From positions 1 through 53,353 of the IMG/VR virus record IMGVR_UViG_3300025425_000027: a stretch of DNA of 53,353 nt; one strand, given 5' to 3'. The DNA comes from a virus (lineage: Duplodnaviria > Caudoviricetes). Position 1 is the stretch's first letter, and every line of letters starts with the position of its first letter. The notes below the pieces were generated by a model. It saw only the letters and a program-made list of their open reading frames with translations, was not told where the DNA came from and made no database searches. The translations under genes and the position numbers were made by a program. Positions 2,451 to 53,353 of the stretch are shown one piece after another.

Positions 2451-2630
2451 ATGTCTAAAGTTAATGACTGGTCAATCGAATTGAAGGAAATGGGTAGCAC
2501 AGCTCCCTGCCACGTCTGCAATGGCGATGGCAAAGTTGAGGTGCAGATTGCTGCTGATGACTTCCGCGAAGACACTTGCGATATGTGCAATGGCTCTGGC
2601 GAGCTGGAGCTGGATGATGAATATGAATAA
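2451..2630 (+). CDS. Small DnaJ-type zinc-finger protein
   Basis: Two CxxCxGxG motifs (CHVCNGDG, CDMCNGSG); AGAAAGGA RBS. Confidence 0.8.
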   Translation: MSKVNDWSIELKEMGSTAPCHVCNGDGKVEVQIAADDFREDTCDMCNGSGELELDDEYE

Positions 2631-3045
2631 GGGTCAGGAAAATCTCCGCATTGCGCTGCGCGATAATCTCAAAATGAAGTTCTACAAGGTGGAGGGGAAG
2701 GGCGGAACGCCCAACCTCCACTATCTTGGCAAGGGCGACTGGCCCACAGGCTGGATGGAAATCATCCACTTGGAGGAGTGGGGCAAGCGCGTCACTACTG
2801 GCCTGCGCCTAGAGCAAGCCAAGTGGATGCAGGATTACATCGACAGTGGCGGCAGTGCGTGGGTGGTGATCCGTGTGGGCCTAGCCACATGCCTGTTCTG
2901 GGGGGATGCGGTTTTTGATTTACTAGATCGGCCCAGCCCAAAGAACTTTATGGGTCTGGCTGTCTGGAGCAAAAACGGCAACCTGTTGAAAGAGGATTGG
3001 AAGCACGTTGAGAACATGATCCTCAACGCAAACTCTGGTTATTGA
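2623..3045 (+). CDS. VRR-NUC/resolvase-like PD-(D/E)xK fold protein with degenerate active site
   Basis: GTPNL...WMEII...LRLEQAKW...GGSAWVV; PD has become PN and ExK has become EII. Confidence 0.6.
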   Translation: MNKGQENLRIALRDNLKMKFYKVEGKGGTPNLHYLGKGDWPTGWMEIIHLEEWGKRVTTGLRLEQAKWMQDYIDSGGSAWVVIRVGLATCLFWGDAVFDLLDRPSPKNFMGLAVWSKNGNLLKEDWKHVENMILNANSGY

Positions 3046-5141
3046 GCTTGGCTTAACAGAGCTGGGTTCGTGCTTTGGATTAAGCTCTGCAACGCTGGGG
3101 ACTGTGTGATGTCAACGTCCTCTATAGGCTGCTCAATTGTTGCGGCTTCAGCCGCACCGGGCATAATAGCGCCACCCAAAGCCTCAATATAGGATAGTAC
3201 GTCTTCCCTAAACTGTGAGTCTCTTGAAGAAATTTCCATCAGCCTGCCCAAATGGTATTTTACACTGTTTGGGTTTTTACCCATTTGCGGACCAGACTTT
3301 ACAAGCCACCTAACAAACTCTGGCTTTGTAACAAGACGCGCTGAAACATATGGCGCAAGAGCGGCCCCAGCCAATCCAACCGCTGCTGTAGTAGCCGCTG
3401 AACCCACATCGTACCCTTGGCCAATCATGCCCAATCCAGCCACAAGTGGGCTGAGTGTGGCGGTGAAACCAATAGTCTGACCTGTCTTGCTATTATTTGC
3501 AAATGCGTCAGTGGATTTTACATCGTTTAACATTTCAACAAGGCTATCTAAATCAGCCCTATTGTTTCCTTTTCCAAACAATGCATCCTTTGCGCTATCG
3601 GCTAGTTTCGAGTAATTCGTCAAGAACTTTGCGGTTGAGAACTCTTCAATTGCATCCTGACCAGCGGGGCTAGTCATACCAAGCCTGCTAAGAACTGACG
3701 CCTTTATGTCTCCACGCTGTGCCGCAGGGATATTTCTCAATATCTTTTTTAACTGCTCGCCGCTTTCTTTTGTACCCTGCATCATAAAATTAAAAGCCTG
3801 AACGGCAGTTCTTTTTTCTTTATGCAGTTGGTCAAAGACAGGTTGAACATCAAACCTCTGTCTATTTCTGGTGTAAATATCTGCCTTTGAAAGAGCTTTA
3901 TTAGCTTGTTCACCACCGTAATTTGTTACGGAATCTTTCATGTCATTAGTCAGAGACGTATAGACTGTGTCTAGATAACTAGCGGAATCGCCGTAACCTT
4001 GTCTTTTTAAGCCATCTATTTTTCTACGAAGATTTGTCCGAAGCTGGCGAAGAGTTTGTAAGTCTATACCACCGCCAGCTTGGGAATCTGCGATTAACCT
4101 ATCAGTCTCATCAAGAGCTGCCTGCATGGACGGGCGCAAAGATTGCTCTGCCCTAGACAGTTCATCCTTGAGCTTTGCGCGTAATTCTATGACATTATTT
4201 ACACGCCCACTAGCATCTGGGGCCAAGTCAAAAGCTGCATCGTATAGCTCACCTTGAGTGGCTTTAAATTTTGCTAAACCTTTTTCTGCGCCTGTCTGTA
4301 GTATCTGGCCAATCTCACCGCCCTCTTGGACGGGCTTGCCATATTTTGAAGCTATATCTCGAACGGCTTGCCCCGCAGATGTTCTGAATGCATCAAACTG
4401 TTCAAATATAATTGGAGATGACGTAGGGAAATCTCTCATCCGCTGTTCAAAAAACATTAAAAAAGGAGACTGGGTTGAAGTCCCTGCTGACGGAAGTTTC
4501 ATTCCCAGCTCACCAGCAACGGCTATACGCTCCCGTGCTGCGGCTTGCCTTGCTGGGCCAACGCCTGCCAACCTTCGTGTAATAGCACCGGGAGCTGCGG
4601 CTAACGCGCTACCAGCTTTTTCCACAAGTTTACCGCCGACAACTTCCAAGCCAATATTTGTGGCTGCTTTAGCCCCTTGCTCTGCAAGGCTACCGCGATC
4701 AACTGAAAAAGGATCAGGAAGAAAAAAATCAACAGCCCTATCGTACAATTGGCCTGCGCCCTCAGATGCCAGTGCAGCCGCCGCTGGAACTGTCACAAAC
4801 TCTTCTGGCGTTGCCACTTGTGGGCCTAGCTGGCCCCCAACAAGAGCTGCCGCTCCACCAACAGTACCTGCTACACCAGAAAGAATATCTCGACCAACAG
4901 ACACATAGTCGCCCATATCAAGACCCTTTGGGTTGTATAGGGTCTTTTGGCCAGTCGCTGGGTTAGTATAAATAAAATTATCTTCGCCCATTGGCGTACC
5001 CGCAGTTGAAACCGCGTCTGGGTAATATTGCTTTATCGCTTCGAGCCTACGCTCTGGGTTATCAAAATTGCCTACAATTGCACGAACTTTTTTTGGCGCA
5101 CCAGTGCTTGTATCGATAGCTGTAAATTTAGGGCCTGCCAT
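3039..5141 (-). CDS. Large internal virion (DNA ejection) protein
   Basis: 700 aa, helical, Gly/Ala-rich hydrophobic segments; last gene of the podovirus structural operon. Confidence 0.65.
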   Translation of the reverse strand: MAGPKFTAIDTSTGAPKKVRAIVGNFDNPERRLEAIKQYYPDAVSTAGTPMGEDNFIYTNPATGQKTLYNPKGLDMGDYVSVGRDILSGVAGTVGGAAALVGGQLGPQVATPEEFVTVPAAAALASEGAGQLYDRAVDFFLPDPFSVDRGSLAEQGAKAATNIGLEVVGGKLVEKAGSALAAAPGAITRRLAGVGPARQAAARERIAVAGELGMKLPSAGTSTQSPFLMFFEQRMRDFPTSSPIIFEQFDAFRTSAGQAVRDIASKYGKPVQEGGEIGQILQTGAEKGLAKFKATQGELYDAAFDLAPDASGRVNNVIELRAKLKDELSRAEQSLRPSMQAALDETDRLIADSQAGGGIDLQTLRQLRTNLRRKIDGLKRQGYGDSASYLDTVYTSLTNDMKDSVTNYGGEQANKALSKADIYTRNRQRFDVQPVFDQLHKEKRTAVQAFNFMMQGTKESGEQLKKILRNIPAAQRGDIKASVLSRLGMTSPAGQDAIEEFSTAKFLTNYSKLADSAKDALFGKGNNRADLDSLVEMLNDVKSTDAFANNSKTGQTIGFTATLSPLVAGLGMIGQGYDVGSAATTAAVGLAGAALAPYVSARLVTKPEFVRWLVKSGPQMGKNPNSVKYHLGRLMEISSRDSQFREDVLSYIEALGGAIMPGAAEAATIEQPIEDVDITQSPALQSLIQSTNPALLSQAQ

Positions 5142-23283: not shown

Positions 23284-23832
23284 TTAGGCAATTTGAACGT
23301 ACTCAACGATGAACGTAAACGAACCCGCTGTCGTAGCATCCACTGTGTTAGTAACATTACAGTAAATTGTACGCTCTGCTGAAGCATACTGAGCAGAGAT
23401 AGGGGCCGTGGCGGCGTTTTGAGTAGTAGCAACCAAGGTAGTAGTTGTTACGTTTCCAACGACAACTGTTGTACCGCCATCTAGGATCTCATCTGCGATA
23501 GCTGCAACAATTTGTGCGCCCGAAGAGGATGTTCCAACTTCATAGCCAATATCACCAGTTCCAATAACGGGAGCCGTGTCACAAAATATCTTAATGTTTG
23601 TGATGATTGTGTTTGCTGGCTGAGTAAACTCACCAATAGTCGGGCTGTCGCCTGCTGTGGTGTTTACTGTAACGCCTGTGGCGAAGCCAACGTGCTTTAC
23701 ATATTTGTCGGTGACAATACCTGTGGACGCAATAGTTGCAATGTCTGTATAAGCACCAGTTGTTGAATTTTTAGAGACAACTTGGAAGCCGCCTTCTGAG
23801 CGCACTGGTCCTGTGAATGTTGTGTTAGCCAT
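23284..23832 (-). CDS. Virion structural/decoration protein
   Basis: Start reassigned to MANTTFTGPVRS after the AGGAG RBS. Confidence 0.7.
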   Translation of the reverse strand: MANTTFTGPVRSEGGFQVVSKNSTTGAYTDIATIASTGIVTDKYVKHVGFATGVTVNTTAGDSPTIGEFTQPANTIITNIKIFCDTAPVIGTGDIGYEVGTSSSGAQIVAAIADEILDGGTTVVVGNVTTTTLVATTQNAATAPISAQYASAERTIYCNVTNTVDATTAGSFTFIVEYVQIA

Positions 23833-23910
23833 GTGATTCTCCTGTCGTGGCAAATGTCAGACGCACCATGCGGCTGTCAGGGATATTGAGACAATACATC
23901 ACATCGTTTT

Positions 23911-23943
23911 AAAAAGAAAGAGGCGATCCGAAGACCGCCCCTT
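23911..23943 (-). terminator. Rho-independent terminator after the major capsid gene
   Basis: Minus strand AAGGGGCGGTC-TTCG-GATCGCCTCTT followed by TCTTTTT. Confidence 0.8.
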
Positions 23944-23966
23944 AATCATAACATTCTGGAGAAATG

Positions 23967-38623: not shown

Positions 38624-40127
38624 AAAGGGTCATCCTTTGTTTTTCTACTGGTTCGTCTTCTTCTGGGTCTTCGCTATGCCCAACGAACCAACCTTTTCGC
38701 AATCTTAACCACGCTTGGGTGCATGTGTCCACTACGTCATCATTCGGATGCGCTGGGAAGGCAGCACATATGTCTATTAAATCTTTAGCCCATTTGCGGC
38801 TGCTTGGGTAGAAAATTCTTCCATCTTCCAACATCGCGCTCGAAGCGTGGGCGCGAGCTTCCTTATCACGGTCAGGAGAATATGCCAATACGGGGACGCC
38901 AGCCATGCGGAGATCCTGCAAGAGAGACTGGCCTGACGCCTTCTTCTCAATCAGAACTGCGTCTGGCTCCCAGAGATCGTATGATTCCTGTGCGATCCTG
39001 CGGAGGTCTGGATAGCTGACCTTGTCGTACCACGCCTCCAGCACGATGGCGCACATGACGCCCTGATGGCGAAACACGCCCCAAGTGGTTCTGGCGCTAA
39101 AGCTGGAGCTTTCCTTTGCCTCGAAGGCTGTGTCCCATGATTGCAGGACGTATTCGATATTGTTGGGCATGTCCTCGCTTTCCCAAGGAACCCACCAGCT
39201 AGATTTGAGGATACCGCCGCCCTTGGGGCTTGGTCGCTGCTGTAGCTGCCCAGCGGCTGCGTAGGAGCCAAGAGAACGCTCTAGGGTTGTCAGGGTGTGT
39301 TCATCGATCCTTTCGGGCCAGAGAAGCTCACCCTCCTTGGTGCGTGGATCTGTGAAGCCAAGGCTTGACCTTATTGGATTTGGTGAGCCAATTTCGTATC
39401 GCGCTGGGATACATAAGTGATCCCACTCATCGCCAAGCTGGTTTGCTAGGACGTGGCCCGTCAGGTCTTGTTCGTGCAGGCGCTGCATGATTATGACGAA
39501 TGCGCCTGTCTTGGGATCGTTAAGGCGTGTCTGCATGGCCTGATCCCACCAATCTAGGACGCCTTCACGCACTTTGGCGCTGTCGGCTTCGACGCTATTG
39601 TGCGGATCATCGATACAGATGATGTCGCCACCATCCCCGGTTAGAGCGCCACCAACTGATGTGGCAATGCGGTAGCCTGTTGCATCGTTTTCAAACCTTT
39701 GCTTTTGGTTTTGATCGTCGGTCAGCTTAAACTTGTCACCGAAATGAGTTCTGTACCACGGGCTATCGATCAGCCTTCGGCACTTGGTGCTGTCTCTGAT
39801 CGACAGGGAGCTTGCGTAGGATGCGTAGAGGAACTTCTTTGACGGTTGCGTGGCCCACGTCCATGCAGGCAGCACAACGGCCACTGACAGCGACTTCATG
39901 TGCCGGGGCGGCACGTTAATGATCAGGCGCTTGATATCGCCATTAACTACGGCTTGGAGGTGATCGCTGATTGCATCGATGTGCCAGTTGTTTTTGAACT
40001 CAACGCCCGGTTCAATCGTCGGCCATGCTGCTTTCGTAAACTCCCTCAATGATCTCCGGTACTTTTCCGCCCTGACTTCCTCCAGCGTAAGATTGCTCAA
40101 AAGCGCGTTCAATTGCTGCGAGTTCAT
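38616..40127 (-). CDS. terL: Terminase large subunit
   Basis: INVPPRHMKS (Walker A), IDDPH, IMQRLHE, SWDTA, IEKKASG, DDVVD. Confidence 0.95.
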   Translation of the reverse strand: MNSQQLNALLSNLTLEEVRAEKYRRSLREFTKAAWPTIEPGVEFKNNWHIDAISDHLQAVVNGDIKRLIINVPPRHMKSLSVAVVLPAWTWATQPSKKFLYASYASSLSIRDSTKCRRLIDSPWYRTHFGDKFKLTDDQNQKQRFENDATGYRIATSVGGALTGDGGDIICIDDPHNSVEADSAKVREGVLDWWDQAMQTRLNDPKTGAFVIIMQRLHEQDLTGHVLANQLGDEWDHLCIPARYEIGSPNPIRSSLGFTDPRTKEGELLWPERIDEHTLTTLERSLGSYAAAGQLQQRPSPKGGGILKSSWWVPWESEDMPNNIEYVLQSWDTAFEAKESSSFSARTTWGVFRHQGVMCAIVLEAWYDKVSYPDLRRIAQESYDLWEPDAVLIEKKASGQSLLQDLRMAGVPVLAYSPDRDKEARAHASSAMLEDGRIFYPSSRKWAKDLIDICAAFPAHPNDDVVDTCTQAWLRLRKGWFVGHSEDPEEDEPVEKQRMTLYG

Positions 40128-40494
40128 GAGTACCGATCCTTGTGAGGTCGAGGGTTATGGTTTTTTCCTCGTGAATTTTTGTTTCTGTCTTATCCACCCA
40201 GCCTGCGCGGTTCTTCAGGAAGAAGATGATGGCTGTGTTGTCTCGTTCTACGGTGGCATTCTCGAACAGAGCATTGGTTACAGCATCTATGCCACGGGCC
40301 TGCCCTCTTTTTATAGCTTCTGAAAATTCTGAATTTTCTGACTGATGAAGCATGAAAGTTGACGTGTGAATACCCAGCATTCCAGCGCATTGTTCTTTGG
40401 TTAGACCCTTTGCCATAAGGCTTTCAGTCTTCTCTAAGACTTCGTCGGTAATATCAAACTTTGGTCTACCGACTGGATTTTTGGCTTTTGCCAT
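40012..40494 (-). CDS. terS: Terminase small subunit
   Basis: VGRPK, HTH, EFSEAIKRG, TAIIFFLKNRAGW; start reassigned to MAKAK. Confidence 0.85.
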   Translation of the reverse strand: MAKAKNPVGRPKFDITDEVLEKTESLMAKGLTKEQCAGMLGIHTSTFMLHQSENSEFSEAIKRGQARGIDAVTNALFENATVERDNTAIIFFLKNRAGWVDKTETKIHEEKTITLDLTRIGTHELAAIERAFEQSYAGGSQGGKVPEIIEGVYESSMADD

Positions 40495-40551
40495 TCCTTG
40501 ACCTTTCTTTTCAGTGGTTAGCTGTATTTTGGGAATGTAGATCAGATCTTT

Positions 40552-40601
40552 AAAAAAAGAAAGACCCACCGTTGCAGTGCGAAACCTAGCCGGGTGGGTC
40601 T
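40552..40601 (-). terminator. Terminator-like hairpin upstream of terS
   Basis: Minus strand AGACCCACC...GGTGGGTCT followed by TTCTTTTTTT; the loop is long. Confidence 0.55.
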
Positions 40602-40668
40602 AGTTTAATGATGAGGTCACAGGCATGACCCAATCGAGCAGTGTGTTTTGGCTATCACATTGCGAGCA

Positions 40669-41442
40669 TTATTGGAATGGGCATTTATTTATTTCATCAG
40701 CTTTTTTCCAGAACCTTTCTCTTTTAACATAAAAATCACGGGAACCATCAAAAATATTTTTTACAAAGTTCATGCCAGCTCCAGAGCTTCTTATGGCTTT
40801 GAATTTATCTTTATCTACCAAATGATGTCGAATTTCTATTTTACGATCAGTCATGGGGTGCAAGATAGCCATTGGCGTTAGCGGTTGAATATTAAAATTT
40901 TGCACTTTTTCATTTTGCTCCACCATATAGTTCATATGTGTCGCGGTTTGAGTTTTAAATTGCATTACTCCCGGCAGTAAGGTTAGGCCGTTCAATGTAT
41001 CTGATTGGCTCCAAGTTGGCTGGGTAAATGTAAAGTAAATTAATTCTCTGGTTTTGATTGCCCAAGGAGATAAGAATTTTATATTTTGTCTATTCTTTTG
41101 AGCAAACCCGCTCCACTGTTCTTGTTCATGTGACCCTGAGTGTAGGTCAAAGTCTTCATTAGATGCAGTCCAACCATAAAAATTATTTCCAAAGTTGATT
41201 GGGTTTACATTTATTTCAACTTCCCCCCACAGCGGAATTACGATTCCCTTGGCATAATAATCAATAAACCCTTTACAATATTTTATTGTTGCATCGTTTT
41301 TTTTATTAAATTTGCTTTCATTTTTCCACCATTCTGGGATGTATTTATGTGAGTAATCTATTTTTGCATTATTGTAAGCGAAGTGGCTTGATGTGTAGCA
41401 ATCCAAAAATATAGGTTTTTCTTTTTTACTTTTAAAGAACAC
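40669..41442 (-). CDS. AT-rich hypothetical protein (possible dUTPase-like beta fold)
   Basis: PEWWK...TIKYC..FIDY..G.VIPLW...KFLSPW...LPG...TPMA. Confidence 0.6.
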   Translation of the reverse strand: MFFKSKKEKPIFLDCYTSSHFAYNNAKIDYSHKYIPEWWKNESKFNKKNDATIKYCKGFIDYYAKGIVIPLWGEVEINVNPINFGNNFYGWTASNEDFDLHSGSHEQEQWSGFAQKNRQNIKFLSPWAIKTRELIYFTFTQPTWSQSDTLNGLTLLPGVMQFKTQTATHMNYMVEQNEKVQNFNIQPLTPMAILHPMTDRKIEIRHHLVDKDKFKAIRSSGAGMNFVKNIFDGSRDFYVKRERFWKKADEINKCPFQ

Positions 41443-41452
41443 AACTATCTCC

Positions 41453-41728
41453 TCACATTGCTAGTAATATGACAAGAACTGCGGCTATTAGAACTACGAA
41501 TGCTGTGCCTGCCATCATTTCTTTTGCCCATCCTTCTGGCTTTTCGTCGTGTATATCGACGTGACCACGCAGGCTGACTGAGATCCACTGGCCTTTCTTT
41601 GCTGGCTCTTCGCCTCTTTGTGTGTGGACCCAGAGGTCTGGATTTCCCAGTCTCTTGCTTGATTCTAATTTTACCCAGTCTGGGATTTCTGATGTGAAGC
41701 CCTTGAACTTCCAAGACTTAATAATCAT
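41453..41728 (-). CDS. Small protein with C-terminal TM
   Basis: PDW...HTQRG...AKKGQWI domain plus hydrophobic C-terminus; ATGA coupling. Confidence 0.6.
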   Translation of the reverse strand: MIIKSWKFKGFTSEIPDWVKLESSKRLGNPDLWVHTQRGEEPAKKGQWISVSLRGHVDIHDEKPEGWAKEMMAGTAFVVLIAAVLVILLAM

Positions 41729-42306
41729 GATTGATTTCCTTTATGCTTAGTGCAGTATTTTTTCTGCTGTTGCGGTAGCGGCTCGTTGCATAGCTCACCC
41801 ATAAACATCCTGCCTTCGTCTATGATATATCTCTGACAGGTTTTGTATATTTCCTCTGGGGGTTTTGATATGACTGGGAGATACCATCCTTTATTTTTAT
41901 TGATTTTAATTTTCACGTTAAGCCACGCGCTTATTTTTTCTTCCGAAACTTCTTTTTCCCGAAGGGCATTGACCAATTCTTTGACGCACATTTTGCCAGC
42001 ATTTGGTGTGTCCATCATTTTTTGTTGGCTGACATTTTCCAAGAACTCATCAAAGGTCATGTGGTTGGCGGGGATATTTTTGATAACATTTTTGAGCCGT
42101 GCTGAAATAAACAGGTCGCCCATTGTTGTGGCGTTTTTTCCAAGCTCAAATACTTTTTCAAACCTTGCCCCCATTGCAATTCTAGCCCTTGCTCTTTCCC
42201 TACCTACGCCTAGCTCTTCGCCTATTTCGCGGAGAAGTTTGCCTGACCGCCTAAGTTCCAGTGCGTACTGATTAAGTTTGGCACTTCTGTTATTAACGAC
42301 CATCAT
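41725..42306 (-). CDS. Sigma70 region-4-like HTH / RNAP alpha-CTD / Zn-finger fusion
   Basis: LREIGEELGVGRERAR; DLFISARLKN...TPNAGKMCVKEL; C...C...CxxH. Confidence 0.7.
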   Translation of the reverse strand: MMVVNNRSAKLNQYALELRRSGKLLREIGEELGVGRERARARIAMGARFEKVFELGKNATTMGDLFISARLKNVIKNIPANHMTFDEFLENVSQQKMMDTPNAGKMCVKELVNALREKEVSEEKISAWLNVKIKINKNKGWYLPVISKPPEEIYKTCQRYIIDEGRMFMGELCNEPLPQQQKKYCTKHKGNQS

Positions 42307-42309
42307 GTC

Positions 42310-42501
42310 TTATTCCTCCTCGAATACTTGATTGCCTATTTCGATGGGCAATTCGATTGTTGTTATTCTAAAGTTGCACTTTAGGCAGGCGCGCCTGCGC
42401 TTTACTGTTGGGAAGCCATATGCTTCGTGCGGCCTTGAGTCTTTGGCTTGCAGCTTAACGCGGCCCTTGCAGTTTGGGCAGTGGGTTACGGCTAGGGTCA
42501 T
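42310..42501 (-). CDS. Stand-alone NrdR-like zinc ribbon
   Basis: CPNC...DSR...KRRRACLKCNFRITTIE; no ATP-cone. Confidence 0.75.
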   Translation of the reverse strand: MTLAVTHCPNCKGRVKLQAKDSRPHEAYGFPTVKRRRACLKCNFRITTIELPIEIGNQVFEEE

Positions 42502-42674
42502 GCTGCCTCCACTTCTTCTGGCATAAGTGACATATAAATATTGCTGTCACTTAATTTAGCTTTGAATATATCTGGGTGTGTAAAAAAACCACCAACAGAA
42601 ACCACTGTCGCTTCTTTCCCAAAAAATTGGCAATGTTTGTTTGTGATAATTACTTTATCGTTAGGTTTTAACAT
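42498..42674 (-). CDS. Small KOW/SH3-like protein (58 aa; not in ORF track)
   Basis: MLKPNDKVIITNKHCQFFGKEATVVSV...; AGAAAGGA RBS. Confidence 0.7.
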   Translation of the reverse strand: MLKPNDKVIITNKHCQFFGKEATVVSVGGFFTHPDIFKAKLSDSNIYMSLMPEEVEAA

Positions 42675-42678
42675 TGGG

Positions 42679-42755
42679 TATTCCTTTCTAAATAACTATA
42701 CTACACTATCTAGTACACTAAGTAGTGTAGTGCAAGTGCATTAGATAAAAAAGAT
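42679..42755 (-). promoter_or_regulatory. Divergent third copy of the early promoter/RBS module
   Basis: Minus strand: T tract, TTGCAC-N17-TAGATA, TACACTA/TAGTGTA inverted repeat, ATTTAGAAAGGAATAC. Confidence 0.6.
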
Positions 42756-43115
42756 TTAGGCCATGTTTAGCTTGACTGGGAGATACCATCCCTTGCGCCT
42801 GTCTCGCTCGCCTTCATCGAAGTTCCGCTCCCAACGTAGGACGTTCACTTCTTCGCTTTCTTCTGAGGCAATTATGCAGGCGACCATGACGGCTATGGGA
42901 TCTCCACCACCGGGCCAGAGTAGGAAGTCATCTGGGCTGAAGCCCTCCATAGCCTTTCGAGCTGTTGTGATAGCTTTGGCTGGATTGAACTGCGGCTTGT
43001 CTTCAGGCTCGAAGACGATCTTGAGTTTACCGTATCTTGCTGCGTCTGTGAGGTCTGGTGTCCACCCGAACTTATTCTCTCTTGGTCGTGACACGATATA
43101 GACGGTGCTGGTCAT
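42756..43115 (-). CDS. Hypothetical alpha/beta protein
   Basis: Start reassigned to MTSTVY after AGAAAGGA; DFLL...GDP...VLRWER...YLPV. Confidence 0.75.
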   Translation of the reverse strand: MTSTVYIVSRPRENKFGWTPDLTDAARYGKLKIVFEPEDKPQFNPAKAITTARKAMEGFSPDDFLLWPGGGDPIAVMVACIIASEESEEVNVLRWERNFDEGERDRRKGWYLPVKLNMA

Positions 43116-43189
43116 TTTGTATTCCTTTCTGAGTGATGTTGAATTGCTGGTATCACGGCCTTGCACAGATATAAACTGTAAATTGATTA

Positions 43190-43490
43190 ATGGCATTAAC
43201 GTCATATTTATGGCATAGACCAAATCTGCCATAATTCATTCAACTGATACTCTTTATTTATATAGTATATATTATATTATTATTATTATTATTATATATA
43301 TGTCATACTGTCATACCCCCCCCTTCTACTACACACAGGGGGGTACTAGGGGGGGGTGTAAAATAGTATTAGAGTACATGCCATAAATGCCATAAATGCC
43401 ATAAATACTTAACGTGTTGGTATTGTTGAAGGAAACAGTGATTTTAGGCATGTCATAAATACTGCCAATAAACATGCCATAAATAAAAAC
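43190..43490. other. Putative replication origin
   Basis: Non-coding; (TAT)n AT tract, C8/G8 inverted arms, repeated ATGCCATAA iterons. Confidence 0.65.
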
Positions 43491-43512
43491 CCCACCTTTT
43501 GAGGGGCGGGGT
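43482..43512 (-). terminator. Rho-independent terminator of the primase operon
   Basis: Minus strand ACCCCGCC...GGTGGGGT followed by TTTTATT. Confidence 0.7.
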
Positions 43513-43671
43513 CATCGTGTGGGTGGCCGTTGATATGCATGTCGTTTGGCGCAGTCTGGTAGCAACGTAACCAATCAAAACAACCGCCATTTTCCCGTGG
43601 CTAAGCGTATTTTTATTAAGTTAAACCACCCACTGGGAACTTAAATCACACCTTATTGGGTGGGTAAAGTG

Positions 43672-43992
43672 TTATGTATTGCCGCCTTGAAATTTAATTG
43701 TCTCGACTTTTGCCTCTGGTTTTTCGGCAATAAGTTCTGCCCCACAACTGAGATACCCACAGCCATCCTGCCAATGATCTGCATTTTCGGGAGTTGACTT
43801 GATCCTAGCAATTTTCAGGAGGGTCATCATGACCCCAACTTGATGCGGTTCGATTGGCGTTTCCAAGAAAACTGACCAGAGTTTTGCAATCATAGTCAGG
43901 TTGGATTCCATGTCACCGTGCTGCGCTGCGCGATCTTTTGTGACGTACTGCTTTGCGGTGTCGAGGATCTCTGATCTTGTATATTTTGTCAT
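43672..43992 (-). CDS. DUF6378-like phage protein
   Basis: DRAAQHG...IAKLWS...MMTLLKIAR...DGCGY. Confidence 0.75.
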   Translation of the reverse strand: MTKYTRSEILDTAKQYVTKDRAAQHGDMESNLTMIAKLWSVFLETPIEPHQVGVMMTLLKIARIKSTPENADHWQDGCGYLSCGAELIAEKPEAKVETIKFQGGNT

Positions 43993-44249
43993 TTTTTCTC
44001 TCCGACTAAATTGTATCTGGCGATGTAATCTGAGACGCCTTGGTAGGTTATTTTTAGGATGTTAGAGATGTCTCTGCGGGTCTTGCCCTCACCCAGCAGA
44101 GCTTCGATCTTTTCGGCCTTGGGTGGGAGGACAACATTGCGGCCATACTTTCCGAAGTAATCGGCTCCTCCTATTGTACCCCAAGTTTTTCTTGCACGGG
44201 CATTTTCTGCTTTTGCTGTCAGTTTCATTTGGTGGATCATGTTATTCAT
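43989..44249 (-). CDS. Small HTH DNA-binding protein
   Basis: GKTRRDISNILKITYQGVSDYI; GAAAGGA RBS. Confidence 0.65.
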   Translation of the reverse strand: MNNMIHQMKLTAKAENARARKTWGTIGGADYFGKYGRNVVLPPKAEKIEALLGEGKTRRDISNILKITYQGVSDYIARYNLVGEKK

Positions 44250-44263
44250 CTTTGAGTCCTTTC

Positions 44264-46558
44264 TCAATTAATTGGTGGGGCGAAGTATGCGAAGCGTGGA
44301 CGCCCTCTGGCCCCTTGGTTTTGGTCGCGGCACTCAATGCCCCGGTCTGTCTGTAGTGCGTCCAGAACGTCTGCACGTTTGCGTCTGTCCATATTAGCGA
44401 AGGCTGAGACGCTGCGCGACAGGTCACGCTCAGTTAGTCCACCTAGTCCAGCCTTTTCGATACGGGCATAGACTGCCTTACAGGCTGCATCGAATGGGCC
44501 TTCGGCCATGTTCGAGCGGAACATTTCGATAGTTTGCTTGGCGTAGTAGTTAACGTAATCGATGCTCCACTGCATTGCGTCTGAACCGATATCATCTTGT
44601 CCCATTGATCGCGCCACGATTAGGGACAGGCGCATGGCGATCTCTCTAGATCGATTGTACATGGCCTCTAGTCCAGTGCCAGTTTCTTTCTTGATTGCGG
44701 CTACTAGACGCTCTTCGTAGTCGCGCAGGAGCTTCTTTGCCTCTGGGGTGAAGACAACTTCAATTGGGTGTGGCGGCATATCGTTGATGTTGCCTGCATC
44801 TAGGTCACCTTCGTGGGCGTTTGCGTGTTCCTTTGCCCAAGCTGACAGCCTATCAGAGATAGATGAGCGGCGCTTTTCTTGGGACATCTGGACGCCGATA
44901 TCTGATTTGACGATCAGGAAACGGTTTAGAAGACCAGAAGCCACGTCACCACCACCGATTGCCTGCATGAACTCAGAGGGCGTTGACATGCCGACTAGGG
45001 TTAATGACGGGCGCTTAACTACGGTTTCGAGCTTTGCTGCCTCAGAAGACTTCATTGTGTTGGTTGCGTAGCCTTGCTGCCTTAGAACGCCGTCTTGCCT
45101 GCCAAAACATTCCATTATGGAGGTGAGGGCGTCTGCCTTGTGCTGCATTCCTTTTGCTGCGGCGGCTTTAAGCTGACGGCCCAGCTCATCAACTACAGAG
45201 ACGTGGGTGGGCTTTTTTGTGAGGGTGGACATGACGCCTGCACCACTGGTGTATCCAGATGGGCCGATCAGCTCTTCTAAACCAGACTCTTCAAGCAGCT
45301 CTTCTAGGACAGTCTTTGTGTGTTCCTTACCAGATCCAGTCTCGCCAATGTTTAGGAAGTATAGGCTGGTGAAGTTTCGCTGATCTGTAACCCAGCGGCG
45401 CCCCATTGCCACTGACCCGAAAGCTAGGGCGCACTGAACAGCGAACTGTGGCTGGGGCTTGATGGCGGTGACAGTGTAGTAATTGACCACATCTTGCAGA
45501 ATGCCGGGTACTGACAACAAGTCTTCGGGTACTGTATTTAGTGGTAGGTCCGCCTGTTTGGGCTTTGACATAATGTTGGCGGCTACCTTTGCGCCGTGTT
45601 CGATGGCCTCACGATCATATTCGTGGTTTGGATCTTGGGTGACGTTCATCATCTGGGCCGCGTCTTTAACTGCCTTGCTGACATTACCCATGTGTTCGTA
45701 CTGACACCAAAGCTCGAAGGCATCGAAGGTGTGTGCCGAATCAAACGGATCTGATGCGTGGTGGCTATAGGCACGGCCATCATCGAACAGCTTTACGCCT
45801 GCCAGCTTTGAGGTGGAGTTTGGCGATAGGTATCTGCCACGGGATGTTGGCTTGTATCCGTACTGAACCAGCAGGGTGTGCATGTCGTGAGTTTCATTGA
45901 ACTGGTCTATGACTGACGTGCCTTCACCCTTTGGGCGGGGCTTGCGGGTTGGCTGGAACTCTGCCTTCTTTTTCCACGGGCATATGTCTTGTAGCTGTGG
46001 TCGAAATTTATCCCAGTCACGCCATAGGGTCAGGAGCTGTGGCGGTAGATCTGGGAGGCCATCAAAGATCGACCTGCCTGCCCACTCATAGGGACGGCCA
46101 GTATCTGGGTGGATCGATGGGGGCAGAACGTCCTGCACTGAACCAGCTCGAAGCTCGAAGACCACTTCGGTCTTGCGTGGATCGTCTTGGACTGGCCACG
46201 ATATCTTGTGGGTGATTAGATCGGGTGGTGCTTTAAAGATCAGCTTGCCACGATTTTCACGACCAATGATTTGGGGTGCGGACTGCATAAGCTCAGAGAA
46301 GTCGATGCCCAGCTCTTCAAAGATTATCTTTGTGTGTTCGACGTTATCTATATCAACAGCACAAGTGCCGCTGGCTCCATGTAGTAGACCTACATTGTGA
46401 TTCGGATTCTGCTCGTAATACAGCCGCGCTGCATCAGGATCAGACAATGCCTTCTCTGGTTGCTGCCAGCCAAATCTCGTTGGGCCTTTAGAGCCTGCGG
46501 GGATCGTGACTAGATACCAGCCAAGTTTAGAGCAATAGTCTTCAACTGGGAATTTCAT
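44264..46558 (-). CDS. Bifunctional primase-polymerase fused to a P-loop helicase (DUF3987-like)
   Basis: NVGL...AVDID...VLPPSIHP..G..Y.W; Walker A GETGSGKE; VVDE; GLLNRFL. Confidence 0.88.
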   Translation of the reverse strand: MKFPVEDYCSKLGWYLVTIPAGSKGPTRFGWQQPEKALSDPDAARLYYEQNPNHNVGLLHGASGTCAVDIDNVEHTKIIFEELGIDFSELMQSAPQIIGRENRGKLIFKAPPDLITHKISWPVQDDPRKTEVVFELRAGSVQDVLPPSIHPDTGRPYEWAGRSIFDGLPDLPPQLLTLWRDWDKFRPQLQDICPWKKKAEFQPTRKPRPKGEGTSVIDQFNETHDMHTLLVQYGYKPTSRGRYLSPNSTSKLAGVKLFDDGRAYSHHASDPFDSAHTFDAFELWCQYEHMGNVSKAVKDAAQMMNVTQDPNHEYDREAIEHGAKVAANIMSKPKQADLPLNTVPEDLLSVPGILQDVVNYYTVTAIKPQPQFAVQCALAFGSVAMGRRWVTDQRNFTSLYFLNIGETGSGKEHTKTVLEELLEESGLEELIGPSGYTSGAGVMSTLTKKPTHVSVVDELGRQLKAAAAKGMQHKADALTSIMECFGRQDGVLRQQGYATNTMKSSEAAKLETVVKRPSLTLVGMSTPSEFMQAIGGGDVASGLLNRFLIVKSDIGVQMSQEKRRSSISDRLSAWAKEHANAHEGDLDAGNINDMPPHPIEVVFTPEAKKLLRDYEERLVAAIKKETGTGLEAMYNRSREIAMRLSLIVARSMGQDDIGSDAMQWSIDYVNYYAKQTIEMFRSNMAEGPFDAACKAVYARIEKAGLGGLTERDLSRSVSAFANMDRRKRADVLDALQTDRGIECRDQNQGARGRPRFAYFAPPIN

Positions 46559-46734
46559 TCTGCCTCGCTTAGATATTCGCTAAGTTTTTTCCACGTTGTG
46601 AGGCTGATTTGCTCATTACCTGTGGCGATTGATTTAACAGTGGGGTGGGATAGGCCACACCGCTCTGCCACGACAGTCAGGCGGCGATCTTGGAGCGCGA
46701 CCCTAATATCGTCTATTGGTATTAGTTTTTGCAT
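46555..46734 (-). CDS. Cro-like HTH regulator (59 aa; not in ORF track)
   Basis: Manual translation LQDRRLTVVAERCGLSHPTVKSIATG...TWKKLSEYL. Confidence 0.75.
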   Translation of the reverse strand: MQKLIPIDDIRVALQDRRLTVVAERCGLSHPTVKSIATGNEQISLTTWKKLSEYLSEAE

Positions 46735-46844
46735 TTTTCACCTTTTTTTGCGATTGAGTACAAAAATATCTTTACAGGCTGCAAATCTTTCTGTAAACCA
46801 ATTTCTGTAGAGAGTGTGAAAAAGAGAATCGAAAGGAAATTGCA
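46735..46844. promoter_or_regulatory. Divergent promoter region with palindromic operator
   Basis: TTTACAG-N13-CTGTAAA at 46771-46797, between divergent operons. Confidence 0.55.
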
Positions 46845-47222
46845 ATGAGCAATATCGATGGATTGGCCTCCCAGTGGCTAGAAGTAAAGGCGTTAGAAAA
46901 GAAGATTATCGCACAGCGCCACGCGATAGAAGAGCAAATAACTGAGGCACTAGAAGCCAAGGGTGAAGGCTCCATTACCCACAAACTTGATGAGCATAAG
47001 ATCACGCTGACACAGCCTGTGTCTCGCAAGGTTGACGCCATCGTTTGGGAAAAAATCAAACATAAAATTCCTGAGAACATGCACCCGGTGAAGGTGACAT
47101 TATCGGCTGACGCGGCTGGCTGCAAATATCTGGTGGAGAAAGAACACCGGATGTGGGCCAAGATTGCTGATGCCTTTGAAACTAAGCAGGGCAAGATCGG
47201 CGTTAAAGTCGAAACCTTTTAA
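46845..47222 (+). CDS. Hypothetical replication-module protein
   Basis: GAAAGGA RBS; first gene of the rightward operon. Confidence 0.75.
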   Translation: MSNIDGLASQWLEVKALEKKIIAQRHAIEEQITEALEAKGEGSITHKLDEHKITLTQPVSRKVDAIVWEKIKHKIPENMHPVKVTLSADAAGCKYLVEKEHRMWAKIADAFETKQGKIGVKVETF

Positions 47223-47248
47223 TTGAAATCTGAAAAAGGAAAAATGAA

Positions 47249-48058
47249 ATGCACATTGATCAAATAGCCACAACCATCACACCTGAGATGGCGAGTGAAC
47301 TTCTTACAAAGAACTACGCAAACCGTAAGCTATCAAAGCCAAACTATACTCACTACATGACCGACATGCTAAATGGGTCTTGGCAGCTTAACGGGGAGAC
47401 AATTAAGGTCGCCATTGATGGTGAGTTAATTGATGGTCAAAATAGACTGACTGCTTGCGTAATGGCAGGAAAACCTTTCCGAACTGTTTTAATCACGGGC
47501 CTTCCGAATACTGTAAAGAAGACCATCGACGGTGGGAAAAAGCGTTCGTTTAATGACCGCGCCCAAATGGACGGAACAAAGCACGGTGCAGCGGTGGGAA
47601 GTGCCATTAACTTTATGGCCAGCTTGGCTAATAAAACTTCCAGAAAAACGGCACTACTTACGCACAGCGAAATGTTTGAAGTATTAGAGATGCACCCAAA
47701 ACTTTGGGATAGTGCGGAATTTTGCTATAAATGTTTTACTGGCATGGCAAGCTCTCTAACTGCGCTGCACTATATCGCGTCATCATTAGGTAACAAAGAT
47801 GAGGCTGATTCTATGGTTCAAGTTTGGCGAGACGGACAAAGAACATATGAGAATGACGCAATGGTTTTCTGCCGTGAGTTCATGATCAGTGACAGCCAAA
47901 AACAAAAAAAGGCGGACTACAACTTTAGGTATTCCTTGTTGATAAATTGTTACAACAAGTTCCTGACTAAGTCGCCAATGACACAAGCCAGACTTCGAGC
48001 GGATCTAAGTTTCATCGATGGCTGGAACGAATATGCAATGTTTAAAAAGGAGAAGTGA
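47249..48058 (+). CDS. ParB/Srx-like domain protein
   Basis: ITPEMASELL..N..NR...W.LNGETI...LIDGQNRL. Confidence 0.7.
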   Translation: MHIDQIATTITPEMASELLTKNYANRKLSKPNYTHYMTDMLNGSWQLNGETIKVAIDGELIDGQNRLTACVMAGKPFRTVLITGLPNTVKKTIDGGKKRSFNDRAQMDGTKHGAAVGSAINFMASLANKTSRKTALLTHSEMFEVLEMHPKLWDSAEFCYKCFTGMASSLTALHYIASSLGNKDEADSMVQVWRDGQRTYENDAMVFCREFMISDSQKQKKADYNFRYSLLINCYNKFLTKSPMTQARLRADLSFIDGWNEYAMFKKEK

Positions 48059-53202: not shown

Positions 53203-53317
53203 AGAGGGCTTAGAGCCATTATTTTTAGAGCGTAAGCACGTTAAGTTTATTGTGCTGTGGGGCGCTGCTGTGACGTGCGTATTGGGCGCTATCATACTCG
53301 AAAGGTTTTTTCTATGA
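53192..53317 (+). CDS. Small membrane protein spanning the terminal repeat (not in ORF track)
   Basis: MEHEEGLEPLFLERKHVKFIVLWGAAVTCVLGAIILERFFL; both repeat substitutions are synonymous in this frame. Confidence 0.65.
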   Translation: MEHEEGLEPLFLERKHVKFIVLWGAAVTCVLGAIILERFFL

Positions 53318-53353
53318 CTGACAGTGACCTGACAGCCTTTCAGGCGTCACAGC
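53222..53353. repeat. Terminal direct repeat or circular assembly overlap, right copy
   Basis: Matches 1-132 with 2 mismatches. Confidence 0.95.

Follow-up and report, generated by a model that had tools for sequence, protein, structure and literature searches.

A phage protein with a sigma-region-4-like helix-turn-helix, a domain homologous to RNA polymerase alpha-CTD and a conserved Cys/His tail: a candidate regulator of late transcription

The virus record IMGVR_UViG_3300025425_000027 (Caudoviricetes), whose full 53,353 bases we refer to as the window, encodes on its minus strand a 193-residue protein, P0001. Profile, profile-profile and structure comparisons, together with residue conservation, support a three-part anatomy for P0001, predicted to consist of an N-terminal helix-turn-helix (HTH) resembling region 4 of sigma factors, a homologue of RNA polymerase's alpha-subunit C-terminal domain (alpha-CTD) and a tail with conserved Cys and His residues. 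We tentatively favour the interpretation that P0001 may regulate the switch to late transcription by binding DNA through two modules.

Results

Anatomy of P0001

An open reading frame (ORF) of this length had been called in the original prediction, which was made from the DNA alone, and we found it exactly as described at 41725..42306 on the minus strand, with a GGAGG Shine-Dalgarno element read from the sequence 8 nucleotides 5' of the ATG. The strings that had been quoted from the protein are also present, LREIGEELGVGRERAR at residues 24-39 and MGDLFISARLKN...KMMDTPNAGKMCVKEL spanning residues 62-111. An opposite-strand ORF at 41843-42271 (142 residues) was regarded as a shadow of the real P0001 gene. 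Comparisons made use of an alignment of 34 relatives of P0001 (A1), of residues 245-329 of E. coli alpha (rpoA, from NC_000913.3) and of residues 540-613 of E. coli sigma70. An AlphaFold2 (AF2) model built on A1 had a mean predicted local distance difference test score (pLDDT) of 75.9, with 10-residue blocks of 81-94 over residues 11-130 and of 36-64 from residue 131 to the end. The parts of the gene are as follows.

41725..42306, minus: gene under study (P0001), 193 codons plus stop, ATG start, from the ORF list and translation
42136..42291, minus: HTH domain, residues 6-57, four predicted helices, recognition helix at residues 36-48
41917..42132, minus: alpha-CTD-like domain, residues 59-130, predicted double helix-hairpin-helix, 3 residues being inserted behind its first pair of helices
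41860..41916, minus: linker, residues 131-149, lysine-rich and hypervariable, at least four variants in A1, pLDDT 46-64
41728..41859, minus: Cys/His tail, residues 150-193, TCQ.Y.I..GR...G.LC..PL...QKKYC..H

The middle domain and alpha-CTD

Searched alone, P0001 matched the Pfam family RNA_pol_A_CTD (PF03118) over residues 59-117 with an E-value of 0.001 and a score of 19.2 bits, short of the 23.8 required. The same family was matched by 20 of the 34 relatives in A1 at E<=0.01 (best 3.7e-14), and it appears in the precomputed annotation of 5 of 97 homologues. When the A1 profile was compared with the PDB it retrieved alpha-CTD chains at E 5.5e-8 downwards, while a direct hhalign comparison with E. 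coli alpha-CTD placed residues 61-128 on alpha 256-321 (95.9% probability, E 5.1e-9, 65 columns). The profile also matched 8vd6 'CAP REPEAT' (E 1e-6); we treated this match as a helical-repeat artefact, and the code traces to a paper on de novo protein design.

The predicted structure was compared with 48,161 representative chains using VIA-align, a tool that rates Z scores under 8 as middling. Residues 59-129 superposed on 1z3e_B with Z 7.4 (root-mean-square deviation 2.4 Å over 62 residues) and on 5vi8_T with Z 7.1 (1.6 Å over 53 residues), and in these superpositions residues 59-130 form a compact double helix-hairpin-helix. Foldseek returned alpha subunits in its top rows and isolated alpha-CTD chains at TM 0.63-0.72 and 1.8-2.3 Å, all at E above 0.001; searches of the PDB and BFVD gave no match for the P0001 model at E<=0.001. 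Taken together, the profile E-value of 5.5e-8, the hhalign probability of 95.9% and superposition at 1.6-2.4 Å indicate that the middle domain, as judged from sequence and modelled fold, is a true homologue of alpha-CTD, and the per-domain check of profile and fold (Z 7.4 and 7.1) bears out the original assignment of an alpha-CTD helix-hairpin-helix fold.

The likeness is confined to one domain. NCBIfam rpoA models matched residues 54-122 only, with 14.6 bits against a cut-off of 277, and the N-terminal dimerisation and assembly domain of RpoA is absent, an HTH standing in its place. Lacking the alpha N-terminal domain, P0001 is not a polymerase subunit. Likewise, Pfam and NCBIfam gave no match to sigma region 2 or region 3 in P0001, and region 2, which binds core polymerase and reads the -10 element, is thus missing. 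P0001 is therefore not a member of the RpoA or the sigma family as whole proteins, and instead holds a homologue of one domain of each. Identity between its middle domain and E. coli alpha-CTD is 18-33%. In the PDB comparison the family revealed no special likeness to alphaproteobacterial alpha-CTD.

The N-terminal helix-turn-helix

Against Pfam Sigma70_r4 (PF04545), P0001 alone scored E 0.013 and 15.5 bits (cut-off 24.1) over residues 25-43, and 16 of the 34 relatives in A1 matched this family at E<=0.01 (best 1.7e-7). The A1 profile reached sigma region 4 chains in the PDB at E 0.003-0.02, and hhalign aligned residues 22-51 with sigma70 570-599 (72%, E 3.4e-5, 30 columns). The N-terminal 58 residues alone found nothing in the PDB below E 1.5, and in PHROGs residues 7-52 matched an unknown family only. 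In structure comparisons residues 1-60 gave Z 7.5 with the DNA-binding domain of DeoR and Z 5.5-6.9 with many sigma4 domains of ECF factors, and also resembled LuxR/GerE-type domains; lower values were obtained for the G20C small terminase (Z 5.4) and Mu Mor (1rr7_A, Z 5.2, weak and at the level of the HTH).

The original prediction had called this part sigma70 region 4.2. An HTH of that class does appear to be present, as argued by the hhalign probability of 72% and the PF04545 matches of 16 of 34 relatives, and P0001 shares with region 4.2 the pattern G-V-x-R-E-R-x-R as well as a fold that matches ECF sigma4 domains. The claim fails in its strict sense, that of a piece of a sigma factor, since P0001 has no region 2 and no evident flap-binding surface. 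Further differences from region 4.2 are that regions 1-3 are absent, the single-sequence score lies under the Pfam cut-off, the DeoR domain scores as well or better (Z 7.5 versus 6-6.9 for ECF sigma4) and the first position of the recognition helix varies within the family. With moderate confidence, we assign the HTH to a generic sigma4/LuxR/DeoR class, with sigma region 4.2 as its nearest sequence pattern.

Conservation of DNA-contact and protein-contact residues

We counted residues over 123 sequences, comprising P0001, all homologues from both protein searches and fragments. In E. coli alpha we take R265, N268, N294, G296, K298 and S299 to be the DNA-contact residues and E261 to be the residue that contacts sigma region 4. 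The equivalent positions are as follows.

R265 equivalent: R70 in P0001; R in 84 and K in 26 of 113 sequences
N268 equivalent: N73 in P0001; N in 81 of 112
N294 equivalent: N102 in P0001; N in 78 and H in 26 of 112
G296 equivalent: G104 in P0001; G in 109 of 113
K297 equivalent: K105 in P0001; K in 100 of 113
K298 equivalent: M106 in P0001; K in only 2 of 113
S299 equivalent: C107 in P0001; C in 71 and A in 28 of 113
E261 equivalent: F66 in P0001; F in 101 of 114

Four of the six presumed DNA-contact residues are thus present in P0001, and W321 of alpha also has its equivalent (W128). An R, an N and an N-x-G-K motif had been predicted to be kept, and R70, N73, N102, G104 and K105 agree with this. 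In addition to its homologous double helix-hairpin-helix fold, the P0001 domain therefore shares with alpha-CTD (PF03118) the equivalents of R265, N268, N294, G296, K297 and W321, while differing by its 3-residue insertion, the loss of K298 and S299 and a conserved Phe in place of E261. These alignments suggest that P0001, like about three quarters of the family, largely retains the DNA-reading face of the domain. To judge from the aligned residues, the patches through which alpha contacts proteins are not evidently conserved; the stretch equivalent to alpha 285-290 reads SQQKMM.

In the recognition helix of the HTH, the equivalents of sigma70 E585, R586 and R588, which we take to be positions that read the -35 element, are E37 (102 of 116), R38 (109 of 116) and R40 (107 of 117). 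At the R584 equivalent, the first position of the helix, 44 of 116 sequences have V, 29 have R and 24 have K, while Q is found at the Q589 equivalent in only 52 of 117.

The Cys/His tail, the linker and split copies

The tail carries a near-invariant C-x15-C-x11-C-x2-H pattern formed by C157, C173, C185 and H188. These residues were retained in 83 of 89, 84 of 87, 83 of 88 and 83 of 86 aligned sequences, respectively, and all four are among the 17 of 45 columns that were invariant in 10 diverse tails. The C/C/CxxH tail of the original prediction is thus a conserved feature of the family, with four conserved potential metal ligands. Comparison of the tail with the PDB gave a best E-value of 1.3 and with Pfam a best match to CxC6 (E 0.0033, under its cut-off), all Atlas look-alikes of residues 146-193 scored below 0.9, and an AF2 model of the tail alone (alignment A3) had a pLDDT of 58.4, too low for use. 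From its pattern, the Cys3His tail is probably a zinc site, with no significant match among the PDB and Pfam entries searched.

In the window, the linker includes the peptide KGWYLPV, which also occurs at the C-terminus of a Pam3_gp32-like protein encoded nearby. It is encoded by a 22-nucleotide direct repeat, found at 41871-41892 and, with 21 of 22 nucleotides identical, at 42773-42794, the second copy being the 3' end of the Pam3_gp32-like gene. The repeat may be a recombination scar or a common short motif.

We compared 19 copies of the gene, the window copy and those of 18 related loci. In 5 of the 19 (loci L015, L016, L017, L018 and L019) the tail lies in the -1 frame, after runs of A7-A10 in the linker; the shift maps to about 4160-4180 in L016 and about 3405-3420 in L018. 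All five shifts have the same direction, and one configuration is common to three independent assemblies. The sister copies in L013 and L014 are in frame and differ by one A from the shifted copies, and the longest A run in the window copy is A6. Database entries of 145-159 residues correspond to the frame-0 products (P0081, P0094 on 13 contigs, and P0099). Since other entries (P0083, P0085 and P0086) are shifted at sites that are not homopolymers, programmed -1 slippage is no more likely than assembly error or decay.

Distribution of the family

A search of 5.8 billion proteins returned 97 homologous clusters at E<=1e-3, and 29 representatives were found among 1.84 billion proteins, 6 of them below 1e-30. 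A tblastn search of 50,697 phage records, which included CRP-901 and CRP-902, gave no match for P0001 or for the distant relative P0120; in the same set P0116 matched 14 unannotated records through its alpha-CTD part only. Near-identical DNA was present in salt-lake, marine, seawater, freshwater and ice metagenomes, four runs of which were aligned. The family is, in summary, small and was found only in marine and saline viral metagenomes, with freshwater and ice as further holders of near-identical DNA.

Distant relatives (27-33% identity) are 123-138 residues long and consist of the HTH and the alpha-CTD-like domain only; one of these short forms, P0119, carries both PF03118 and PF04545 in its precomputed annotation. 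Similar proteins, which we regard as leads only, include 135-residue proteins of uncultured Caudovirales in BFVD labelled 'RNA polymerase, alpha subunit, C-terminal', Atlas clusters of 131-137 residues with Sigma70_r4 or RNA_pol_A_CTD, and further proteins of 131-139 residues in BFVD and Atlas from uncultured phages and bacteria. The short proteins of uncultured phages and bacteria, about 125-140 residues long and annotated automatically, have the same two-domain core as P0001 but lack the lysine-rich linker and the Cys3His tail. We found no longer fused forms, which is weak evidence. Judging by titles and the openings of abstracts, the papers retrieved in our searches hold no account of a fusion of a sigma4-type HTH with alpha-CTD.

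Outside the polymerase itself, alpha-CTD is, to our knowledge, hardly known. A further non-polymerase use of the domain was seen in P0121, a metagenomic protein of 413 residues with about six tandem alpha-CTD-like helix-hairpin-helix repeats.

The source phage

The window is a whole virus record with a completeness estimate of 100%. Direct repeats of 132 nucleotides at its ends (1-132 and 53222-53353, 98% identical, repeat family D1) fit a complete genome with terminal redundancy or, equally, a circular assembly overlap. The nearest cultured relatives are the Roseobacter phages CRP-901 and CRP-902, with 79.7% nucleotide identity across 40% of a 10.6-kb query and a TerL protein 87.7% identical to that of the window. 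In PMC10149686, CRP-901-type phages are assigned to hosts of the CHAB-I-5 lineage, their genus is described as globally distributed and abundant, and the isolates are stated to depend on host transcription. Family scans detected no RNA polymerase gene among the scanned ORFs of the window.

An operon with probable translational coupling upstream of the packaging genes

P0001 is encoded within a block of small minus-strand genes.

43279..43513, minus: probable start of the transcription unit, with a terminator-like hairpin at 43513-43488 and sigma70-like promoter matches at 43468-43441 and 43314-43279
42498..42674, minus: p58, first small gene of the coupled block, whose stop overlaps the zinc-ribbon start by 4 nucleotides
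42310..42501, minus: NrdR-type zinc ribbon of 63 residues, whose stop lies 3 nucleotides before the start of the P0001 gene
41453..41728, minus: p91, with a hydrophobic C-terminal tail, whose ATG overlaps the stop of the P0001 gene (ATGA)

In a consensus scan each of the two promoter matches agreed with 10 of 12 consensus positions. Family scans gave no match for p58 and none for p91, which is 60% identical to CRP-902 gp01; the zinc ribbon matched PF22811 (E 3e-9) and TIGR00244 (E 3.4e-6). The close junctions along p58, the zinc ribbon, P0001 and p91, of 4, 3 and 4 nucleotides in turn, imply that these genes are co-transcribed, with probable translational coupling. One database entry, P0097, is a deletion that fuses the HTH of a P0001-type gene to the C-terminal half of p91. 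A single 183-nucleotide metatranscriptome contig of relatives covers 42153-42336 (three runs, short contigs only); it may stem from DNA carry-over and so does not demonstrate expression.

Along the minus strand the order is a primase-polymerase gene (44264-46558), a gene for a DUF6378 protein, the hairpin and promoter matches, the Pam3_gp32-like gene, p58, the zinc ribbon, P0001, p91, p257 (phrog_7084, unknown), two hairpins, terS, terL and portal. This arrangement is shared: of the 18 related loci, 16 have p91 after the P0001-type gene, 15 of these 16 continue with terS, terL and portal (the 16th locus ends too early), and the zinc ribbon lies upstream in 9 of 18.

The position of P0001 may itself be informative. 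In CRP-902 (OQ401624.1, 273-602, locus L027), gp02, a 109-residue MarR/TrmB-like winged-helix protein, is encoded directly upstream of the p91 homologue, and looks like a non-orthologous replacement of P0001 as a regulator. That an unrelated MarR/TrmB-like protein fills the same place points to a slot for regulators. Locus L003, whose gene copy is 99% identical, encodes a 203-residue protein with a Sigma70_r4 match (E 1.9e-16) at 2477-3088, between p91 and terS, where the window has the unrelated p257 gene. Together with CRP-902 gp02, this marks the stretch as a hot spot for transcription regulators.

Candidate target sites ahead of late-region genes

Two minus-strand sites in the window share an unusual layout.

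40526..40650, minus: candidate site ahead of terS, with two conserved hairpins, the second followed by TCTTTCTTTTTTT, AAAGATCTGATC and the -10-like TACATT
23883..23948, minus: twin module of hairpin, TCTTTCTTTTT, GATGTGATG and TATTGT, upstream of the gene at 23284-23853 (repeat family D10)

The hairpins ahead of terS lie at 40567-40650, with the same placement in loci L003-L019 and in CRP-902 (L002 10427-10531). The first, a small one, keeps CCTGT in its loop without exception; the second, rich in GC, carries CACTGCAAC within a long loop and is followed by the T-run TTTCTTTTT(T). Both occur in all relatives and in CRP-902, the hairpin and T-run preceding terS in all 15 related loci that reach this gene, and 6 of 20 predicted pairs show compensatory changes. 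A terminator, a leader RNA and a packaging signal are all conceivable identities for the hairpins. An Rfam scan of 40000-47500 returned three rows at chance level, all far from the gathering scores.

The T-run gives way to 12-14 bases that vary (AAAGATCTGATC in the window), then to the -10-like TACATT/TAAATT, which is conserved, and lastly to a stretch rich in A. TACATT lies about 30 nucleotides before the terS start, with no -35-like hexamer, and the consensus scan found no sigma70-type promoter match between the terminator hairpin and terS. A module composed of a hairpin, TCTTTCTTTTT, GATSTGATS and TAYWKT is present exactly twice in the genome (23883-23948 and 40526-40564), both times ahead of late-region genes; the pattern search gave 2 matches versus 0.00 expected, and TCTTTCTTTTT itself has only two exact copies on the minus strand. 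From their layout, we consider the two modules candidate late promoters without a -35 element. The T-tract in their -35 region could, we infer, be read by an alpha-CTD-type head.

Discussion

A proposed regulator of late transcription

The findings above led us to favour, tentatively and at somewhat less than even odds, the interpretation that P0001 binds DNA through two modules and regulates the switch to late transcription, most plausibly as an activator at late promoters that lack a -35 element. Control of late genes belonging to the phage itself is favoured because P0001 is encoded in a coupled operon a short way upstream of the terS block, which a terminator insulates, in a slot occupied by a MarR-like protein in CRP-902. 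P0001 would be made before the late genes, from the host-type promoters at about 43.28-43.47 kb, as part of the p58-zinc ribbon-P0001-p91 operon. We infer that it would bind DNA through both modules, the sigma-region-4-type HTH reading the major groove and the alpha-CTD-type helix-hairpin-helix the minor groove of an adjacent A/T tract, with the basic linker and the putative zinc-binding Cys3His tail adding contacts to DNA or RNA polymerase. It would then act on the switch to transcription of packaging and structural genes by the host RNA polymerase, presumably by activation rather than repression. The most likely site would be the terminator-insulated, -35-less region ahead of terS, together with its twin at 23.9 kb, since at both the T-tract occupies the -35 region beside a GATSTGATS element.

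Several observations weigh against this interpretation. The structural Z scores of 5-7.5 fall in the middling range of the tool, and every Foldseek E-value is above 0.001. The equivalents of K298 and S299 are lost, and roughly one sequence in four (26 of 113) combines K at R265 with A or W at N268 and H at N294, so that reading of the minor groove by the alpha-CTD-like domain may not be universal. The HTH is also similar to the N-terminal HTHs of small terminases, as seen with G20C TerS (Z 5.4) and with a TerS-like ORF in locus L026. The variable part of the region upstream of terS differs among phages that all carry the gene, and although the type of HTH and the terS-upstream motif diverge together, this is inseparable from shared ancestry. 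CRP-902, which lacks the gene, keeps the same type of hairpin, T-tract and -10-like layout as the gene-bearing locus L018, indicating that the module does not depend on P0001 in any simple way. Finally, the computations gave no direct link of P0001 to any DNA site.

Comparison with known late regulators

The phage regulators RinA/ArpU, Mu Mor/C, P2 Ogr and lambda Q control late genes and are encoded just upstream of packaging genes. Like them, P0001 is a small, predicted DNA-binding protein encoded directly upstream of terS and the late operon; Mor gives the weak fold match to its HTH (1rr7_A, Z 5.2), and Ogr and Q carry a Cys/His motif, as does P0001. Among the matches listed for Pfam, PHROGs and NCBIfam, P0001 had none to the RinA/ArpU, Mor/C, Ogr/Delta or Q families, and we know of no alpha-CTD-type domain in any of them. 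In sigma appropriation by T4, the phage protein MotA reads the -35 region of phage promoters that lack a host-type -35 element. The likeness of P0001 to MotA is one of concept only, with no homology and no AsiA-like partner identified.

Alternative explanations

The original prediction had proposed that the two heads occupy an UP-like A/T tract and a -35 element side by side and thereby occlude strong promoters, either those of host rRNA or the early promoters of the phage, which we consider unlikely. Suitable sites do exist, since the promoters it had in mind are strong, early-type elements carried by two 94-nucleotide cassettes (1151-1244 and 1752-1845, 86% identical), in each of which an A6/T-rich UP-like tract immediately precedes TTGCAT-16-TATATT and the -35 element is spanned by an inverted repeat with co-varying outer bases. 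A third copy at 2436-2453 comprises the ribosome-binding part only, and together the three precede three tandem small genes. Occlusion would also be consistent with the conserved equivalents of sigma E585, R586 and R588 and of alpha R265, N268, N294 and G296, and with the lack of an evident activation surface on P0001. However, the R584 equivalent is variable and Q589 is matched in only 52 of 117 sequences, making a fixed host -35 hexamer unlikely as the common target, and the equivalents of K298 and S299 are lost. The late-block position and the MarR-like replacement in CRP-902 fit a phage-internal regulator, albeit without separating activator from repressor.

A more elaborate proposal, to which we give somewhat less credence than to occlusion, holds that P0001 is a free-standing copy of the polymerase part that reads upstream promoter DNA. 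Placed on the T-tract and -35 region of terminator-insulated, -35-less late promoters, it would supply in trans the alpha-CTD-type and sigma4-type contacts that are beyond the host holoenzyme there, or else shut off UP-element promoters with the same two heads. In some members of the family its action would be tuned by tailed and tail-less isoforms arising from -1 slippage on an A9-A10 run of the linker.

We are more doubtful still of a Q-like antiterminator or polymerase-riding factor, in which the sigma4-like domain would sit on the beta flap while other parts hold DNA or RNA, allowing read-through ahead of terS and at the twin site at 23.9 kb. Its appeal lies in the terminator-like hairpins and T-runs directly ahead of terS, conserved in all 15 loci that reach it and in CRP-902, with no sigma70-type promoter between terminator and gene. 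In lambdoid phages Q lies just upstream of the late block, and lambda Q has a Cys/His motif along with a DNA-binding domain, features that P0001 shares. Nevertheless, no Q-family sequence or fold was found among the matches listed, flap binding by the HTH is pure conjecture, and the conserved -10-like TACATT/TAAATT after the T-run fits a promoter and not pure read-through.

It is very unlikely that P0001 serves as an accessory in DNA handling, helping the small terminase at a packaging site near terS or acting in replication or partition. The packaging version draws on the resemblance of the HTH alone to TerS-like N-terminal HTHs (L026 and G20C TerS) and on locus L024, where an ORF with a distant HTH and a partial alpha-CTD-like domain lies between a possible TerS and TerL. 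For replication or partition, the relevant feature is an array at 43207-43483, upstream of the operon, that contains six of the six copies of TTTATGRCAT in the window (versus 0.30 expected), three of them in tandem with a 9-nucleotide period, beside a C8...G8 inverted repeat, two copies of GTATGACA and a (TAA)n run. The array is iteron-like and may be an origin or operator region; it is common only to L003 and L009, the closest relatives, and we did not use it in arriving at the late-regulator interpretation. Its narrow distribution argues against this role, as do a separate and well-supported terS in the window (phrog_309, E 6.8e-27), the one to two genes and the terminator that separate it from the P0001 gene, and the packaging of DNA by CRP-902 without a P0001-type gene.

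Lastly, it is hardly credible that P0001 acts as a decoy, drawing off host activators or other partners that touch alpha-CTD or sigma region 4, for although both modules fold like polymerase parts contacted by activators, the surfaces needed by a decoy are not evidently conserved, the contact patches that we take to operate in E. coli being lost (F at E261 in 101 of 114 sequences, SQQKMM at 285-290), and the low identity to E. coli alpha-CTD, with no special alphaproteobacterial likeness, indicates that the domain is not a recent copy of a host surface.

Significance

The late-regulator interpretation thus remains the one we favour. The CRP-901-type roseophages have no polymerase of their own, and P0001 would offer a concrete entry point to their late-gene switch, with the Cys3His tail, which has no significant PDB or Pfam match, and the terminator/T-tract module as defined objects for direct testing. 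If P0001 instead blocks UP-element promoters, it would represent a new principle of host shut-off. If our interpretation is correct, alpha-CTD has here been reused to read DNA beside a sigma4-type HTH, which would constitute a new way to build a transcription factor.

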